Shown: in pieces, positions 2,625 to 24,082 of the stretch
Layout: every line of letters begins with the position of its first letter
Numbering within the stretch: position 1 is the first letter of the stretch
Origin: Escherichia phage EP75
Reading direction: 5' to 3' (one strand)
Sequence record: MG748547
Length of the DNA: 64,000 nucleotides
The notes under the pieces: model-generated
What the model saw: only the letters and a program-made list of their open reading frames with translations
Database searches by the model: none
Told to the model about the DNA's origin: nothing
Made by a program: the position numbers and the translations under genes

Positions 2625-3080
2625 ATGAGCGAAACAAAACTTGAAACGATGAAAACCGAAGATATAATGGCAGAATTGGAACCTCTTATTTCGGTAAATC
2701 CTGAAGACATGAACTTGGACCAAATGTCATTGAAAATTGGTCGTTCGTGGATGACTGTGCAACGCCATTATATTCGTGAAGGAAGATATCTGGAGTATCT
2801 AACTGGCAAATTCCGCCAAATAGATCTCTATTTACGCCGATTTTATGCAGGGGAATTGCCGCCCAACGTTTATGTTGAACGCCCATTAAAAGTTCGACCC
2901 CTGAAATCTGATATAGATGTATGGGTAAAAGCAGATGATGATTATATCGAATTGTCTAGCATGCTTCAAGAGCAGAAAGCCAAAGTCAAGTTCATCGAAA
3001 GTTGCTTAGATCGTTTGAACAAACTCGGATATGAAGTGAAGAATGCTATTGATTGGCGAAAATATTTGGATGGGATGTAA
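2625..3080 (+). CDS. uvsY: UvsY-like recombination mediator
   Basis: 151 aa; C-terminal half aligns by eye with T4 UvsY (DxYLRRFYAGE ... DYIELSSMLQ ... GYEVKNAIDWRKY); AGGGA SD; adjacent to uvsW as in T4. Confidence 0.65.
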   Translation: MSETKLETMKTEDIMAELEPLISVNPEDMNLDQMSLKIGRSWMTVQRHYIREGRYLEYLTGKFRQIDLYLRRFYAGELPPNVYVERPLKVRPLKSDIDVWVKADDDYIELSSMLQEQKAKVKFIESCLDRLNKLGYEVKNAIDWRKYLDGM

Positions 3081-3826
3081 TGGTTTCTCTACAGGCTTTG
3101 CGCAAACTTAATGACTTTGAAAATCGTCATCATACATTTCAGCAATATTCCTTGCCGTTTAAGGAACTGACTTGCGTAACTACTGAAAATGGTCGTCACT
3201 ATGTTTCTCCCACTGGAGTCAAACTGACTTCAGTGACGACCATGTTAGGGCGTACTGGTGACCACACATGGTTAGAAGCCTGGCGGGACAAGTTGGGGCA
3301 TGAAGCTGCTGATATAGAAACACATCGTTGCGCAGACCGTGGGGAAAAACTTCATTTGGCTTGTGAGTTGTATCTCAAAAACAGACCAATGAAAGAAGTT
3401 CTGGAAGCTGCAGGGGAATACGTGTTTATGTTCAAACAGGTTTTCCCCTACCTTAACAAAATGAGCAAGATATATGCACAAGAGATTCCATTATATAGCG
3501 AAGTCCTGGGTCTTGCTGGTCGTGTTGACCTCATCGGGGTTTACGAAGGAATTCCAAGCATAATCGATTTCAAAACATCCAACACCCTAAAAACTCGAAG
3601 CATGATAGAAGATTATAGTATTCAATTGTGTCTATACTCAGTCATGTTTCAACAAATGTTTAATGTCAAGATAGAGCGTTTAATCAATATTATATCCAAC
3701 GAAAATGCCCTTGTTCCCACCATAATCGAATTCGATCGCAAAGACGTTATTTCTAAAATGTTTGACCGTGTCCGTCTGTATCACAAAATGGACAAAGAAC
3801 AGAAAGGAATCTGGGCGGATCGCTAA
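3080..3826 (+). CDS. PD-(D/E)xK family nuclease (RecB/Cas4/YqaJ-like fold)
   Basis: ATG overlaps uvsY stop (TAATG); motifs GRVDLIG, IIDFKTS and QLCLYSV match D / (D/E)xK / QhxxY nuclease signature. Confidence 0.55.
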   Translation: MVSLQALRKLNDFENRHHTFQQYSLPFKELTCVTTENGRHYVSPTGVKLTSVTTMLGRTGDHTWLEAWRDKLGHEAADIETHRCADRGEKLHLACELYLKNRPMKEVLEAAGEYVFMFKQVFPYLNKMSKIYAQEIPLYSEVLGLAGRVDLIGVYEGIPSIIDFKTSNTLKTRSMIEDYSIQLCLYSVMFQQMFNVKIERLINIISNENALVPTIIEFDRKDVISKMFDRVRLYHKMDKEQKGIWADR

Positions 3827-3855
3827 ATACTCCATAATATTGGGGGAAATTAGTG

Positions 3856-5355
3856 ATGTCTGAGATCCAAATAGTCAAAGTGAACGAAGTTAGAATGCGG
3901 ATCCTTGCCGAGGATTATATCCGTGAAGAACTCAACGATTACTTCAAATTTGAAGATCCTAATTTCCAACCGAATCCGTTCAGTAAATGGGACGGCGTAG
4001 TGCGGTTGTTCACAAAGAGTTCTGGGCTTATCGACATCGGCCTGTTATTTGAGGTGTTCAAATTCTGTAAGATGAACGGTTACACCATCAAATTAGATCC
4101 GGCCTTAAAATATATTCAAGATATTCCGGATGAAGAAATTCATGCGTTCATCGATACATTGAATGCGGTGTACCGAGACGAAAACAAACAATATCAAAAA
4201 GCGATTGTCCGCGATTATCAATTTGATTCCGTTACCACAGCAATACGCCAAAGCAGATGTGTCCTCGAAGCTGCCACGAGTGCTGGCAAATCCTTTATTT
4301 TGTACATCATGGCGCGTTACTACAGGCAACGCAGAGATGCCCTCGAAAGTAATCTGAGGACGTTAATCGTTGTACCATCCATTCATTTGGTGACTCAGTT
4401 GTATGACAACTTCGAAGAATATAGCCACGGGACAGAATGGAAACCATTGATGAATGTCCAGACAATATACGAAGGGGCAACGAAAGAGATTTTCAAACCC
4501 ATAGTTATTTCAACTTGGCAAGGTATCCAGAACCAACCCAAAGAGTGGTTCCATCAATTTGGAGATATCGTCATCGACGAAGTACATACATCAAAATCAG
4601 ATAAATTGTCTTACATCTTGAACAACTGTATTAACGCTGATCAACGTTTGGGAGTAACCGGAACCCTGGCGAATACAAAGGTCGCGGGGTTACAAGTCGT
4701 TGCTCACTTTGGCGCATATCATAAAATTATTACAGCGCGCGATTTAATCGATCTAGGATATGCGGCAGACATCAATGTTAATATGATTGAAGTCATACAT
4801 CCTGTGGCAGACTGTATTGAAATGCACGGTGCTGAGTATCAAAAGGAAATAGAATTCCTCATTGCTAACGAACGCCGCAATGAATTGATAGCTCGAATGG
4901 CTCTGTCTTTGAAAGGGAACGTCGCAGTAATGTTCGAACGTATCGATGCACACATGATGTTGGTTTATGAAATGCTATCGGCAGTCAAGAAAAACGTATT
5001 CGTCATCAACGGGGAAGTCAAGACAGAAGTTCGTAAACAGATTCAGGCTGCTATGGAAGAAGGGGAAGATATAACACTGTTGGCATCATATGGTACTATG
5101 CAACAGGGCGTATCTATCAAAAAACTCCATCATCTGATATTGGCCCATCCCAGCAAATCTTATATCCGTGTTATACAGACATTGGGGCGTTTGATGCGCC
5201 AGCATTCCTCTAAGGATGTTGCGCGAATCTGGGACCTGGTAGACAACCTGCGTTACAACGGTTCCTACAACCATGCTCTCAGGCATTCTCATGAGAGATA
5301 TAAATTTTATCTTATGGAGCGCCACCCTGTTAAAATGAAAAAAGTGGCGCTCTAA
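3856..5355 (+). CDS. uvsW: UvsW-like SF2 DNA helicase
   Basis: 500 aa; Walker A AATSAGKS, DEVH box, TWQGIQNQPKEWF segment alignable to T4 UvsW; size matches T4 UvsW. Confidence 0.85.
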   Translation: MSEIQIVKVNEVRMRILAEDYIREELNDYFKFEDPNFQPNPFSKWDGVVRLFTKSSGLIDIGLLFEVFKFCKMNGYTIKLDPALKYIQDIPDEEIHAFIDTLNAVYRDENKQYQKAIVRDYQFDSVTTAIRQSRCVLEAATSAGKSFILYIMARYYRQRRDALESNLRTLIVVPSIHLVTQLYDNFEEYSHGTEWKPLMNVQTIYEGATKEIFKPIVISTWQGIQNQPKEWFHQFGDIVIDEVHTSKSDKLSYILNNCINADQRLGVTGTLANTKVAGLQVVAHFGAYHKIITARDLIDLGYAADINVNMIEVIHPVADCIEMHGAEYQKEIEFLIANERRNELIARMALSLKGNVAVMFERIDAHMMLVYEMLSAVKKNVFVINGEVKTEVRKQIQAAMEEGEDITLLASYGTMQQGVSIKKLHHLILAHPSKSYIRVIQTLGRLMRQHSSKDVARIWDLVDNLRYNGSYNHALRHSHERYKFYLMERHPVKMKKVAL

Positions 5356-19152: not shown

Positions 19153-19842
19153 ATGAAACATTTAATCCTCGGGGTTGTGCTGGCAGGTCTGGCATTACCC
19201 GCCGCCGCCAAGCTGAACTCCACAGGTGAGAAACTGTGGTCTGATCTTTCCTACTGTGCTGGGTTCTCCCAGGCGGTCGCTATCGACAAGTCCGGTTCCA
19301 TAGAGAATTTTGCTGAACTTTGGAACACGGGTAACGTCTCCACTGCTGTTGTTAATGCTGGGATTGAGTTCAACCGTTACAAACAGGGAGCCTACAACTT
19401 GAAAGGCTACCTGAATGACGATGAATTTAACCGAGGAGGCATGGAGGCTGGCGATCTCATCATGACTGGCCGTATGGGCACACAAGGCCGTATGACTGTA
19501 AGGCAATGCCGTTCTCTCCCCTCTCCGGCATTACAGAAGGGTGTGCAAATCGGGCGTCGACATCTGGATCTGATCAATGATGGCAACCAATGCATCAAGG
19601 TGTTTGAATATAGTGCCGACCAAGAATCAGATCGACGTTTGAAAAAGGAATGGCGGACACGCGCCCTTGGATTGAGAGCATGGCTCGTAGAAAACGATTA
19701 TTACTACGAGGATCGTGTTCAGAACGGATTGAAAGATCTTTCTACTAATTTGTCTGTCAATCTAGACGACCCAAGGCTTTCGCGTGAACTCAAGCAAACA
19801 CGGATTGACTGCGACAATATGATGAAGGAGAACGAAAGATGA
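19153..19842 (+). CDS. secreted/periplasmic protein, function unknown
   Basis: AAGGAG SD; N-terminal signal peptide MKHLILGVVLAGLALPAAAK; several Cys. Confidence 0.5.
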   Translation: MKHLILGVVLAGLALPAAAKLNSTGEKLWSDLSYCAGFSQAVAIDKSGSIENFAELWNTGNVSTAVVNAGIEFNRYKQGAYNLKGYLNDDEFNRGGMEAGDLIMTGRMGTQGRMTVRQCRSLPSPALQKGVQIGRRHLDLINDGNQCIKVFEYSADQESDRRLKKEWRTRALGLRAWLVENDYYYEDRVQNGLKDLSTNLSVNLDDPRLSRELKQTRIDCDNMMKENER

Positions 19843-20159
19843 GAAACATAATATTCTTGTTATTCTTTTCTATGTTAGCATCATTCCAAGTTATGGCAAC
19901 TCCGGCCAGCAAATTGAATATATGTGCGGCCTGGTTGTCTACTTATCAACAATTTCACCCTGATGATAAAGATACATCCATCCTTTTATCAGATTATGAA
20001 GGTGAGTTGAAACGCCTTGATCTCTACAGCGTGGATCAAATAGAGAATGCTTTAGATTTGCCAATGATGGAGTCCGCTGCCGATAATAGCAAACAGACGA
20101 TCAAAGATCTGACTATGTGTCGGGAAATAGCGACTAATTTCGTTGGAAATCAAAGATAA
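19839..20159 (+). CDS. small secreted/periplasmic protein, function unknown
   Basis: 106 aa; hydrophobic N-terminus MRNIIFLLFFSMLASFQVMA; ATGA overlap with upstream gene. Confidence 0.45.
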   Translation: MRNIIFLLFFSMLASFQVMATPASKLNICAAWLSTYQQFHPDDKDTSILLSDYEGELKRLDLYSVDQIENALDLPMMESAADNSKQTIKDLTMCREIATNFVGNQR

Positions 20160-21016: not shown

Positions 21017-21030
21017 TTCAATAACATTAG

Positions 21031-21059
21031 GGCGGTTATTATTAAACCGCCTTTTATTT
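21031..21059 (+). terminator. intrinsic terminator
   Basis: GGCGGTT-ATTATTA-AACCGCC hairpin followed by TTTTATTT. Confidence 0.55.
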
Positions 21060-21073
21060 GAGAGATCTATATT

Positions 21074-21742
21074 ATGAATAAGAAGAGTCGTATCATCATC
21101 GGCGCGGATCAGGGAAATCTGTATTTTGATACAACTGGTGCTATTGCCCACGCCATCCTTCCAACAGGTATTTCTGTTTATTGTGTCGAACATCCAGATC
21201 CAGCGATCAAACGACTTTGTTACATCCATCGTGAAAAGGGATTGATTGTATTACCGGAAGGCGCAATTATGCGCGCTCGTTCTTGGCCGATCGATTTTAA
21301 TTCCATGACCGCCAGAGAGATTGACGCCCGTTTCTTCGCATACAATATGAATCGAACTTTAAGGAACGAAACTCAAAGAGTTGCCCATTTCGATAATGAA
21401 ACATATACCGTGACATTAGAATTTCGCGTTCTTGGTGAAGCTCTTCAGGTAAAGAAAACGAGTTGGGCAACCGAAGGGACGTTTACCAATGATTATGCTC
21501 TTATCGATAGATTGTGTAATCGGTTCCGAATTAGCCTGACTGCGAATGAAGATTTGGGAGAATATGTATCATGGACAGCTCGTTCTCCACATATGAATGG
21601 GATCATGATGGAGAGCGGGACTCGTAATCGTGCTGTTCTTCAGCTGCTGTTGTTAGATGCGTATTCTCGCAATCCTCTGGAATATTTGTCTCGAGAGCAA
21701 ATCGACAACGCTCTTTCCCATTGCAATCGTCTGGAGGTGTAA
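21074..21742 (+). CDS. hypothetical protein
   Basis: 222-aa ORF, no family recognised. Confidence 0.45.
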   Translation: MNKKSRIIIGADQGNLYFDTTGAIAHAILPTGISVYCVEHPDPAIKRLCYIHREKGLIVLPEGAIMRARSWPIDFNSMTAREIDARFFAYNMNRTLRNETQRVAHFDNETYTVTLEFRVLGEALQVKKTSWATEGTFTNDYALIDRLCNRFRISLTANEDLGEYVSWTARSPHMNGIMMESGTRNRAVLQLLLLDAYSRNPLEYLSREQIDNALSHCNRLEV

Positions 21743-21743
21743 T

Positions 21744-22031
21744 ATGTCCGGCGTATGGTGTGATGTATTATTAGTGAGATTTTCAAACGGGATGGATAAC
21801 CAGATTATTTCATTCTTTTATCCTGTTCCCTTTTCTTCTATGGGTCTGACTGTCAAGCGCGTTCTTGACATAGAAGAAAAACTCAACGCCATGCCGTATA
21901 TGGCGCGACCACACGTGCTGGGTTGTGAACTGTTAAACGAAATGATGATCGATGAGAATCTTGTTGAAACAATTATCACGCGTGAACAGATGAAAACCAT
22001 ACTGGCTCAGGGAGAACCCCATGTCGAATAA
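21744..22031 (+). CDS. hypothetical small protein
   Basis: ATG at 21744 with GGAGGTG SD, in frame with ORF 21657..22031. Confidence 0.35.
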   Translation: MSGVWCDVLLVRFSNGMDNQIISFFYPVPFSSMGLTVKRVLDIEEKLNAMPYMARPHVLGCELLNEMMIDENLVETIITREQMKTILAQGEPHVE

Positions 22032-22341
22032 ACCGTTTGAACTTAAATTTCGCGTTTGGCATATTCCCCAGGTTCCTGGGATCGCTTTTCATGTTGAGGT
22101 TCCAACATTTGAAGAAGCGCAGCGCCTGAAGAATGCTCTGGGTGATTATGATTTGTTCCAGTTCAACAACAATATCAAGCCGGATTATTGCAATGCTTCG
22201 GGCATTCAGATTTATCAACATGATCTGACCGATGATGATCTTAATGATATGGGTCTGGATGATCGTTGGGTTGATATGGAAGATGTTGACGAACTCAACG
22301 ATTATTTCGAGCATCTGCGCAGTACAGGGTGGGAAATATGA
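22021..22341 (+). CDS. small acidic protein, function unknown
   Basis: 106 aa; C-terminal half very rich in Asp/Glu. Confidence 0.4.
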   Translation: MSNKPFELKFRVWHIPQVPGIAFHVEVPTFEEAQRLKNALGDYDLFQFNNNIKPDYCNASGIQIYQHDLTDDDLNDMGLDDRWVDMEDVDELNDYFEHLRSTGWEI

Positions 22342-22646
22342 TTTCAAAATATATTGTAAAGCCTGGGGATACTCTGTCCAGCATCGCTCTAAAATTATAT
22401 GGTGATGCCCAACAGTATATCAAATTAGCCAGATTCAACAATATCCAAAACCCAGGCCATATCGCGGTTGGTCAGGTTATTTGTTTACCCACACCTGTCG
22501 AAGACAAAGAACACATTATGATTCCGGTTCAACCGACTCAGAAGTGTTTGGATGCGATAGCTGGTTTATTTCGGCCAGGTTTTTGTGATGGAACTATTGA
22601 ACGTCACATTTATCAAGCAATTGTGGAAAACGCAGGTGTAAAATGA
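22338..22646 (+). CDS. LysM domain protein
   Basis: YIVKPGDTLSSIALKLYGDAQQYIKLARFNNI matches LysM peptidoglycan-binding motif; ATGA overlap upstream. Confidence 0.55.
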   Translation: MISKYIVKPGDTLSSIALKLYGDAQQYIKLARFNNIQNPGHIAVGQVICLPTPVEDKEHIMIPVQPTQKCLDAIAGLFRPGFCDGTIERHIYQAIVENAGVK

Positions 22647-22852
22647 TCGGATTAATTCGTTACCTGTTCATATTCGTAATTTCAACATTCATTTTATTTT
22701 TCTTTTTCAAATACTTGAAAGAGACTAAAATCTACCGAAGTAAACGTTGGCGCAAACGGGTGAGGGCAACTTTCCTGCTGCTGATTTCTTCGGTTACAAT
22801 AACCGCACTCACATTGGGTGCTTATATCTACATTTTTGAAGGGGTACATTGA
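22643..22852 (+). CDS. small integral membrane protein (two predicted TM helices)
   Basis: 69 aa with two hydrophobic segments separated by a basic loop; ATGA overlaps on both sides. Confidence 0.45.
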   Translation: MIGLIRYLFIFVISTFILFFFFKYLKETKIYRSKRWRKRVRATFLLLISSVTITALTLGAYIYIFEGVH

Positions 22853-23643
22853 TGTTCAAGAAACTGGTGTTCGGTGCAATTATGGTTCTGGCTGCAAGTC
22901 TACTTTCTGGTTGTGGTGGCGTTATCGATGAAGGTAACGTCGGCGTTCGTACCCAATGGGGTGAAGTAGACATGAACCCTGTAACGGCGGGGATCTACAC
23001 CAGCTTTGTTTCAAGCGTGGATGTTTACACGACCAAAGAAGCCGTTGTGAGTCTTACTAAAATGACTCCAAAGGCGAAAGACAACCTGACTCTGGAAGAC
23101 TTGGATGTAGATGTTTATTACACACCCAACGTCGCAAAGGTTCCGTGGTTCCATACCAAATTTGCTGGCCAGAGCGCTGAACTCGATGATGGCACGATAG
23201 CGGTGGGTTTCAATCTGGTTAAAACTGCTGCATCATCTTCTTCAATGGACGCCGTTTCTTCTCTTGATTCTATGACAATTCACACCCAACGTGCTGAATT
23301 GGAGAAGATGATTAAAGATCGCACTCAGCAACAATTAGAAACTGCTGCGCCTGGTATGTTCACAATTACACGCGTGTTAGTGAAAAAGGCGCTGACAGAT
23401 CCTTCTATTGAGCAGTCTATCCGTGATAATGTTATGGCGGACAAACGATTGGATACGGCAAGAAAGAACGTTGAAATTCGCGAGCAAGAAGCCCAAGCGA
23501 ACCAAAAACTGACCACCTCGCTGACGCCTGAATATCTACAACATGAATATAACATGGTGTTACAATCATGCGCCAACAGTGGAAAATGTACTCTGATCGT
23601 TGACGGATCCGGCTCAGGTAAAATGCTGAACGTCGGCAAATAA
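22852..23643 (+). CDS. lipoprotein with SPFH (band-7/HflC-like) domain
   Basis: Signal peptide plus lipobox LLSGC; EGNVGVRTQWGEV resembles the SPFH N-terminal motif of HflK/C; coiled-coil C-terminus. Confidence 0.5.
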   Translation: MFKKLVFGAIMVLAASLLSGCGGVIDEGNVGVRTQWGEVDMNPVTAGIYTSFVSSVDVYTTKEAVVSLTKMTPKAKDNLTLEDLDVDVYYTPNVAKVPWFHTKFAGQSAELDDGTIAVGFNLVKTAASSSSMDAVSSLDSMTIHTQRAELEKMIKDRTQQQLETAAPGMFTITRVLVKKALTDPSIEQSIRDNVMADKRLDTARKNVEIREQEAQANQKLTTSLTPEYLQHEYNMVLQSCANSGKCTLIVDGSGSGKMLNVGK

Positions 23644-23726
23644 ACGCTTTATTCAATAATATTTGTTAGGTAAGCTGTAGTCCTCTTGTAGTGAAACATT
23701 GTAAACAACTAACTGGAGTAATCCGA

Positions 23727-24005
23727 ATGAACCGTACTGATTTTATCGCTCACATCGCCCAGACTCAGGGTATGACCAAAGGCGAAGCAGAGAAGATCGT
23801 GGCATCTTTTATCAACGGCGTAAAAACTGCAGTCGCAGCTGGCCAATCTGTCCAATTCGTCGGCTTCGGCGCGTTTGAAGTTAAACATCAGGAAGCGCGC
23901 ACTGGCCGCAACCCGCTGAACGGGCAAGCGATTCAGATCGAAGCGAAAAATGTTGTTAAATTCAAAGTCGGCGAAGGTCTGAAAGCTGCTGCCAACGGCC
24001 AGTAA
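23727..24005 (+). CDS. HU/IHF-family DNA-binding protein
   Basis: 93 aa; VGFGAFEVKHQEARTGRNPLNGQAIQIEAKNVVKFKVGEGLK aligns with bacterial HU; GGAG SD; strong terminator downstream. Confidence 0.8.
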   Translation: MNRTDFIAHIAQTQGMTKGEAEKIVASFINGVKTAVAAGQSVQFVGFGAFEVKHQEARTGRNPLNGQAIQIEAKNVVKFKVGEGLKAAANGQ

Positions 24006-24056
24006 TCACATCCAGAGCGGGCGTGCCTAGCACAGCGTGTTAGGCTAAAAGAGAAA

Positions 24057-24082
24057 GCCGAGGCATTAACCTCGGCTTTTTC
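24057..24082 (+). terminator. intrinsic terminator
   Basis: GCCGAGG-CATTAAC-CTCGGC hairpin followed by TTTTT. Confidence 0.65.

Follow-up and report, generated by a model that had tools for sequence, protein, structure and literature searches.

A phage SPFH lipoprotein gene with a small membrane partner, and a separate LysM gene, in the Escherichia phage EP75 genome

Why does a virulent phage carry, one directly after another, genes for a LysM-domain protein, a small two-helix membrane protein, and a lipoprotein of the SPFH superfamily, and do the three belong together? We addressed this question in Escherichia phage EP75 (sequence record MG748547), using a stretch of 64,000 nucleotides (nt) that we call the window and that consists of Kuttervirus DNA (Ackermannviridae; Vi01/CBA120-like). 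An initial annotation, made from the sequence alone, had described the three open reading frames (ORFs) as one functional trio, and all three were present as described in both sequence and coordinates:

22338..22646, + strand: LysM-domain protein of 102 amino acids (aa); PF01476, 44.9 bits; phrog_7348/380
22643..22852, + strand: two-transmembrane (2-TM) protein of 69 aa; phrog_11680 (function class unknown), E 5e-46
22852..23643, + strand: SPFH (Band 7) lipoprotein of 263 aa; PF01145; phrog_200 “lipoprotein,” E 2e-58

Our answer is that, within a non-late operon, two independent accessory cassettes share the slot that separates a gp17-like gene from an HU-like one. One is the LysM gene, and the other is a pair made up of a periplasmic SPFH lipoprotein and its 2-TM partner, which together would protect the cell envelope. 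We give this reading as a whole a rough probability of 0.5. Within it, the comparisons described below demonstrate the fold, the lipobox, a strict pairing specific to the lipoprotein branch, and the dispensability of the pair.

The pairing was seen most clearly outside Kuttervirus. A 2-TM ORF of 55–70 aa lay 5′ of the SPFH gene in all 22 distinct non-Kuttervirus phage loci that encode a lipobox-type protein. The gap between the two genes was −4 to +28 nt in 21 of these loci, and one ORF lay between them in the remaining locus. In Erwinia phage phiEa2809 (54% identity), for example, an unannotated 64-aa 2-TM ORF overlaps the SPFH gene by one base, and the pair also recurs in a Burkholderia-associated phage contig, in metagenomic phages of 80–174 kb, in T4-like contigs, and in 17 further IMG/VR loci. 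The small proteins are mutually alignable, and their profile detected members on which it had not been trained (L020, 7e-10; L040, 2e-17; L044, 1e-13; also L041). Moreover, pairwise identities of the 2-TM genes correlate with those of the SPFH genes (r = 0.41, a value reached by 0 of 2000 Mantel permutations), indicating that the two have been co-inherited. The 2-TM gene is thus the obligate upstream partner of the lipobox-type SPFH gene, and one that is often left unannotated. The co-conservation of the trio that the initial annotation had anticipated was therefore tight for the 2-TM/SPFH pair (22/22 loci) but did not extend to the LysM gene, which was found in 48 of ~170 Kuttervirus records and in none of the 22 divergent loci.

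The 2-TM protein has the two-helix architecture first proposed for it, with a loop containing 10 lysine or arginine residues (K/R) between its two hydrophobic segments. It matched no Pfam, NCBIfam, or PADLOC family, the only hit being a sub-threshold one to HisKA_7TM in Pfam. Its phage homologues share a common layout of a single basic residue at position 3–6, TM1, a basic loop, TM2, and a short acidic tail (LER, VDHIF, or FEGVH). Across 24 sequences from 23 distinct loci, K+R counts in the N-tail, loop, and C-tail were 19, 120, and 6. By the positive-inside rule, the loop would therefore be cytoplasmic and both termini would lie at the periplasmic surface, and we predict an inner-membrane protein with an N-out/C-out topology.

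The SPFH protein begins with MFKKLVFGAIMVLAASLLSGC, a canonical signal peptide and lipobox (MFKK-LVFGAIMVLAASL-LSGC, with the lipobox L-S-G-C). On this basis, it classifies as a lipoprotein with predicted lipidation, and the lipobox cysteine, Cys21, is encoded at 22912–22914. The lipobox (LxGC or LxAC) is kept in ~25 homologues. Beyond the signal peptide and lipobox (residues 1–21), the protein comprises SPFH1/SPFH2 (~22–182), two coiled-coil helices (184–223 and 226–242), a C240-x5-C246 cysteine pair, and a terminal “TLIVDGS” strand. The Band_7/SPFH family PF01145 was matched at 50.3 bits (cut-off, 23.6 bits), with residues 24–216 covering profile positions 2–176 of 176. The description of the third gene as a lipoprotein with an SPFH domain was thus borne out by both its lipobox and its domain score.

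The SPFH fold had been set beforehand as the point to check, and it was predicted with confidence. AlphaFold2, supplied with an alignment of 33 homologues at 33–80% identity (A1), returned a model with a mean predicted local distance difference test score (pLDDT) of 86.3, in which two beta-rich SPFH subdomains are followed by helices 184–223 and 226–242 and a flexible tail, in the order SPFH1-SPFH2-CC1-CC2-C-terminal strand (CC, coiled coil). Foldseek matched this model along its full length to PDB entries at a probability of 1.00, led by human prohibitin (2e-13) and followed by erlin1/2 (7e-13), HflK/C-FtsH (3e-12), stomatin, and E. coli QmcA-YbbJ (4e-9), and then by flotillin and vault. Entries 8rrh, 9vvj, 9cz2, 7vhq, 9z7u, 8z5g, and 7wi3 were among the matches. 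A PDB sequence search with the single protein gave no matches, and a PDB profile search returned only HflC, insignificantly (E 0.4–0.9) and over the N-terminal 40 residues, so only the fold comparison is informative here.

How close the protein comes to HflK and HflC, to which the initial annotation had likened it, is a separate matter. The likeness holds at the level of the superfamily and stops there. No NCBIfam equivalog model for HflK or HflC matched at E<0.1, identity to HflK/C was 15–19%, and prohibitin and erlin scored better. The SPFH family profile found one ORF in the window, and all related loci likewise hold a single SPFH gene, whereas HflK and HflC form a paralogue pair. Among the other searches, NCBIfam assigned none of the scanned proteins to a meaningful family, and PADLOC models gave no match at E<0.1 for the LysM, 2-TM, SPFH, or gp17-like proteins. 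Class membership of the SPFH protein therefore reaches the superfamily only.

More distant homologues suggested what the 2-TM partner might be for. At 33–38% identity, these proteins carry an N-terminal TM helix rather than a lipobox and lack the C240-x5-C246 pair, and their genes sit in bacterial housekeeping contexts with no small partner. Our bacterial survey covered one genome per GTDB species and yielded 65 loci, mostly from Beta- and Gammaproteobacteria. Nearly all of them were TM-anchored (~60, as single genes), and the partner accompanied none of the TM-anchored ones. By contrast, the sole bacterial locus with a clear lipobox, in a Massilia assembly (44% identity), did have the 2-TM gene. 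The same division held in viruses, as the TM-anchored viral homologue L035 was also without a 2-TM partner. The C-x5-C pair is restricted to lipobox members and present in most of them, which by its sequence is consistent with a disulfide in an oxidizing compartment. We conclude that the lipobox, the 2-TM partner, and mostly also the cysteine pair are derived, phage-associated traits that occur together. Because lipobox and partner co-occur while the TM-anchored relatives have no partner, we infer that the 2-TM protein may act in trans as the membrane-spanning element of the system.

The LysM gene told a different story. The domain itself is secure (44.9 bits, with a cut-off at 20.9; residues 5–51 of 102), and AlphaFold2, run on an alignment of three sequences, modeled it as beta-alpha-alpha-beta with a pLDDT of ~85 over residues 1–55. 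The C-terminal half scored below 55 and has no confident fold, yet this half (IPVxPTQKCLDAIAGLF..GFCDG.IER, with two cysteines) is better conserved than the LysM domain. The protein starts at the domain (MISKYIVKPGDTL), with no signal peptide, TM segment, or hydrophobic N-terminal segment, and it was not among the reported virion proteome terms (PMC10892097). Hence the suggestion that LysM is an envelope-binding partner of the other two proteins did not hold up, as a protein without a signal peptide has no evident access to the envelope of an intact infected cell.

The distribution of the LysM gene also set it apart. It occurred in 48 phage records, all of them Kuttervirus, and was missing from ~120 (~70%). 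Presence and absence differ by an exact 305-bp indel (22338–22642; compare position ~3790 in L012 and L014) flanked by a 5-nt ATGAT repeat. Because of this repeat, stop and start codons overlap as ATGA in either state, which preserves translational coupling, and in LysM-less genomes (e.g., L012–L014 and L017) the gp17-like gene directly overlaps the 2-TM gene. To judge from these flanks, the absence looks like a microhomology deletion of the whole gene. Within ~4 kb of the SPFH gene, no LysM relative was found in any of the 22 distinct divergent phage loci. Conversely, the Taipeiviruses Menlow (a Klebsiella phage) and KWBSE43-6 (an E. coli phage) encode full-length LysM orthologues at 59% identity whose genes share 4 nt with the gp17-like gene and lie directly 5′ of the HU gene, with no 2-TM or SPFH gene. 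This identity falls within the range of the flanking orthologues (36–84%), suggesting that the gene was inherited vertically and later lost from most Kutterviruses. The full-length LysM family comprised only three 90% clusters in a set of 5.8 billion proteins, and therefore no wider context can be drawn for it. LysM thus forms an accessory cassette apart from the SPFH pair. The gene conserved alongside it, and translationally coupled to it, is the gp17-like one, which does not belong to the SPFH cassette. As a side observation, a conserved soluble protein of 65–73 aa overlaps the 2-TM start in two divergent phages (L006, 4602–4799; L007, 4575–4796). It carries the motif PGD[TP]IREKLTG...YxVTSVC and takes the position of LysM, although it is not a LysM protein.

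Natural variation also showed that the 2-TM/SPFH pair can be lost. In Salmonella phage STP07, an in-frame deletion (L109, 2450–2701; window ~22643–23643) destroys the pair and leaves an 83-aa ORF in which 2-TM residues 1–17 are joined to SPFH residues 198–263. About four other Kuttervirus isolates gave the same truncated match, and the STP07-type Kutterviruses retain LysM. Because these deletions occur in viable isolates, the 2-TM/SPFH cassette is dispensable and hence accessory.

Both cassettes lie within a terminator-bounded unit of seven genes (21074–24005), which encode a phrog_5426 protein, a 95-aa protein, and the gp17-like, LysM, 2-TM, SPFH, and HU proteins. Its further features are:

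21029..21053, + strand: intrinsic terminator with a 9-bp stem and then a T-run, closing the upstream unit and marking the 5′ boundary of the operon; annotated in Mooltan
22021..22341, + strand: P22 gp17-like gene; PF17420, E 6e-52; phrog_1510
24054..24079, no strand assigned: hairpin terminator with an 11-bp stem after the HU-like gene, marking the 3′ boundary of the operon; annotated in Mooltan, Menlow, and KWBSE43-6

Each start is preceded by a purine-rich ribosome-binding site at 5–10 nt. The three genes had been described as linked by ATGA overlaps, which is correct for LysM/2-TM (22643–22646) and also applies to gp17-like/LysM (22338–22341). The 2-TM/SPFH junction is instead a one-base overlap, TGATG (22850–22854), and would be ATGA only if the start were the TTG at 22849. 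The operon runs in the same direction as genes for a Rad3-like helicase, RNase H, a gp55-like sigma factor, and gp46/47, and elsewhere among phages the pair has small ORFs of early type as neighbors, together with RNA ligase, RNase T, and Thy1. The T4-type late-promoter motif TATAAATA showed no enrichment in the window, with zero matches within 20 kb of the cassette. A sigma-70 promoter scan gave no more matches than the shuffled expectation, and for that reason we claim no promoter. The top sigma-70-like match of the region (TTGATA-18-TATAAT, 11/12) lies at 22394–22423 on the minus strand, antisense within the LysM gene. Our literature search found no Ackermannviridae transcriptomes.

Two neighbors deserve comment. 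P22 gp17 counteracts a prophage exclusion system (PMC9409062), and the gp17-like gene is commonly labeled a “superinfection exclusion protein”; here it sits in a strictly virulent phage. Its homologue in phiEa2809 is 157 aa long and has a C-terminal extension. Further upstream, two overlapping genes (19153–19842 and 19839–20159) are labeled i-spanin and “Rz-like spanin/putative lipoprotein” in some records. Both appear to encode cleavable signal peptides (MKHLILGVVLAGLALPAAA, cut before K, in the first; MRNIIFLLFFSMLASFQVMA, cut before T, in the second), and the second has no lipobox; the spanin annotation looks doubtful. Homologues of these two genes lie just 5′ of the 2-TM/SPFH pair in phiEa2809. 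We also considered the pair itself as spanins, given its combination of an inner-membrane protein and a lipoprotein, and rejected this reading, as a periplasmic domain is missing from the 2-TM protein.

Taken together with the known behavior of SPFH proteins, these results suggest the following mechanism. The SPFH protein would be exported and lipidated and would then oligomerize as a ring or cage on the periplasmic face of the membrane. The 2-TM protein would be its membrane-embedded partner, substituting in trans for the N-terminal TM helix by which bacterial relatives are anchored in cis, and it may retain the lipoprotein at the inner membrane, with its short periplasmic N- and C-tails as probable contact points. 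Such an assembly would be neither a lysis-timing device nor a regulator of FtsH. Most speculatively, it could be a pre-late envelope device that excludes superinfecting phage or stabilizes the membrane, and superinfection exclusion, one of the roles raised in the initial annotation, is possible. A more specific version, which we find doubtful, would make the pair a periplasm-facing cage with a TM “fence” supplied in trans, deployed by large virulent phages ahead of late gene expression and sealing the inner membrane against superinfecting DNA or against depolarizing abortive-infection effectors. If this were true, phages would have a novel type of envelope-protection device, and viral SPFH proteins would gain their first assigned function.

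Several observations weigh against the proposal of an inner-membrane, envelope-protecting pair. Adjacency and co-inheritance are compatible with any shared function, and it is gene context only that points to non-late expression of the cassette. The lipobox SPFH protein of Acinetobacter phage Ab15, which is more distant (24% identity), has no upstream 2-TM partner. In this phage (L004), the SPFH gene spans 3001–3828 and a 55-aa 2-TM ORF lies two genes downstream (4357–4524), and the Ab15-type SPFH branch occurs in ~26 Acinetobacter phages. The role of SPFH proteins in phages has also been called unclear in a 2026 paper (PMC13239085).

The remaining objections concern the membrane itself. In E. 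coli, the +2 rule of the Lol system predicts outer-membrane sorting when glycine occupies positions +2 and +3 after the cysteine. Cys21 is followed by Gly-Gly, and Asp at +2 is very rare among the homologues, which predicts an outer-membrane lipoprotein held apart from its inner-membrane partner. Two reports are compatible with the same location. Three SPFH peptides were detected in a virion preparation of phage Sajous1 (PMC10892097), where they could reflect carry-over of outer-membrane vesicles (OMVs), and PM0222, an HflK/C-like protein of a Pasteurella prophage, is described in the literature as released in OMVs. These points feed the main rival explanation, an Llp-like model in which a Lol-sorted exclusion lipoprotein masks or immobilizes a receptor or an injection route at the outer membrane, as T5 Llp or Cor does, while the 2-TM protein is a co-expressed inner-membrane component or merely a helper in assembly or export. 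The place of the SPFH gene in a non-late accessory operon, next to the gp17-like gene, a gene of exclusion conflicts, would suit this model as well. Still, the structurally characterized SPFH assemblies among our Foldseek matches sit on the membrane of their TM anchors and clients, the bacterial relatives are TM-anchored in the inner membrane, and the strict link between lipobox and 2-TM gene is better explained by a shared membrane. The SPFH protein also has no sequence similarity to Llp or Cor, its PHROG scan returning phrog_200 only. We therefore regard the outer-membrane model as unlikely.

Other explanations look for a function nearer to known host or lysis proteins, and we find them harder to sustain. 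The phage protein might mimic HflK/C, replacing or joining the host cage around FtsH and so altering proteolysis during infection, as the initial annotation had proposed in suggesting manipulation of host membrane proteases. The fold matches to HflK/C-FtsH complexes (9cz2, 7vhq, and 7wi3), the predicted periplasmic compartment, which HflK/C share, and the “regulator of protease activity HflC” label of some GenBank records all lean this way. However, we consider it improbable, given the failed equivalog models, the insignificant profile hits, the low identity, and the lone SPFH gene described above, and given that the nearest bacterial relatives are stand-alone prohibitin-like genes that do not adjoin ftsH. 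In addition, the phage is virulent, and the lambda CII logic therefore does not apply. Lysis timing, also raised in the initial annotation, would require the 69-aa protein to be a holin or antiholin whose triggering is controlled by the SPFH lipoprotein. In size and in its two TM helices, it does resemble class II holins, the genes annotated as spanins lie 2–3 kb upstream on the same strand, and the pair lies 3′ of rIIB in two T4-like metagenomic contigs. Yet the 2-TM protein matched no holin family in Pfam or PHROGs and, instead of a charged cytoplasmic C-tail, has an acidic tail of 3–10 residues that is predicted to be periplasmic. The Kuttervirus endolysin is encoded elsewhere and does not adjoin the 2-TM gene (gene table of PMC10892097), which places the pair outside the lysis cassette; the late-promoter motif is missing nearby; and viable natural deletions would not be permitted for a sole holin. 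This role is thus quite improbable. Least credible is the original picture of the trio as one unit, with LysM tethering the 2-TM/SPFH complex to peptidoglycan. All three genes are translationally coupled in the window, but this reading is already contradicted by the distribution data, since ~70% of Kuttervirus records keep the pair in the same slot without LysM, the divergent loci never contain it, Taipeivirus and the STP07-type deletion have LysM without the pair, and the protein has neither signal peptide nor TM segment.

In the two T4-like contigs with rIIB (L008, 3862–5813; L009, 1575–3526), the pair is directly 3′ of that gene, and a Bax1-I family membrane protein is encoded a few genes further on. 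This neighborhood may tie the pair to membrane-integrity functions.

Much of the raw material for these conclusions could already be found in databases and publications. Over the 2.2 kb that surround the trio, EP75 shares 98% identity with the Salmonella phages Mooltan, Matapan, and Vi01 and with ~170 other Kuttervirus records, and the trio region is present at 90–99% identity in ~175 phage records. This breadth, together with the peptides of the SPFH protein reported by mass spectrometry for Sajous1 (PMC10892097), indicates that the genes are real. Labels vary among records, from “LysM domain-containing protein” to “endolysin” and “peptidoglycan-binding protein” for the LysM gene and from “lipoprotein” to “SPFH domain band 7 family protein” and “regulator of protease activity HflC” for the SPFH gene, with the 69-aa gene labeled “hypothetical.” SPFH proteins are widespread among phages and giant viruses, and phage SPFH lipoprotein genes were noted in 2011 (PMC3220722), 2024 (PMC10892097), and 2026 (PMC13239085). 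The genes themselves, as well as the assignment of the third one to SPFH and to the lipoproteins, were therefore previously known, and our literature searches on the function of phage SPFH proteins gave annotations and speculation only. In the literature searched, we found no mention of an obligate 2-TM partner, its limitation to the lipobox branch, or LysM as a separate cassette. What is new here is the fixed 2-TM/SPFH pairing, the pattern of a cis TM anchor versus a lipobox plus trans partner, and the demonstration that LysM is separate.

With a lipobox branch that has a fixed partner, bacterial relatives anchored in cis, and natural knock-outs, a vague annotation becomes a tractable two-protein system. 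Our results also correct three misleading labels, under which the LysM gene is entered as an “endolysin,” the SPFH gene as a “regulator of protease activity HflC,” and the gp17-like gene as “superinfection exclusion.” Such corrections matter because Kutterviruses are used in the biocontrol of Salmonella and E. coli O157.

Compared with known systems, the SPFH protein most resembles the prohibitin, HflK-HflC, and erlin cages (8rrh, 9vvj, 7vhq, and 9cz2), with which it shares SPFH1-SPFH2, a long coiled coil, and a C-terminal strand, as well as protein bulk on the non-cytoplasmic side of the membrane. By sequence, it is closest to prohibitin-like proteins of bacteria that are anchored by an N-terminal TM segment. 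Unlike the cages, however, the phage protein is anchored through a lipobox cysteine, is encoded by one gene instead of a paralogue pair (K/C or PHB1/2), adds the C-x5-C motif, and always has a dedicated 2-TM gene 5′; identity is 12–19%, and the oligomer is predicted by analogy. PHROG 200, the phage “lipoproteins” of Vi01-like, Erwinia, Acinetobacter, and N4-like phages, includes the phage SPFH gene as a member, with no difference in kind.

As a two-gene arrangement of an SPFH protein and a small membrane protein, the pair recalls the SPFH-NfeD operons, such as E. coli QmcA-YbbJ (8z5g) and archaeal stomatin PH1511-PH1510. Yet the phage partner is a 2-TM hairpin of 55–70 aa that gave no NfeD match in Pfam and has no OB-fold, its 69 aa in EP75 being taken up by two TM helices and a basic loop. 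Moreover, QmcA faces the cytoplasm, whereas the phage SPFH protein is predicted to be exported. The pair is thus an SPFH-plus-small-membrane-partner operon other than NfeD. In its possible function, it calls to mind T4 Imm and Sp and T5 Llp, which are likewise small membrane proteins and/or lipoproteins, non-late, non-essential, and located among conflict genes. A direct likeness to T4 Imm was considered and rejected, as there is no PHROG link, and no sequence or family relation to any of these proteins appeared in PHROG or Pfam. The resemblance is a functional conjecture, in keeping with a small accessory pair that may guard the envelope of the infected cell.

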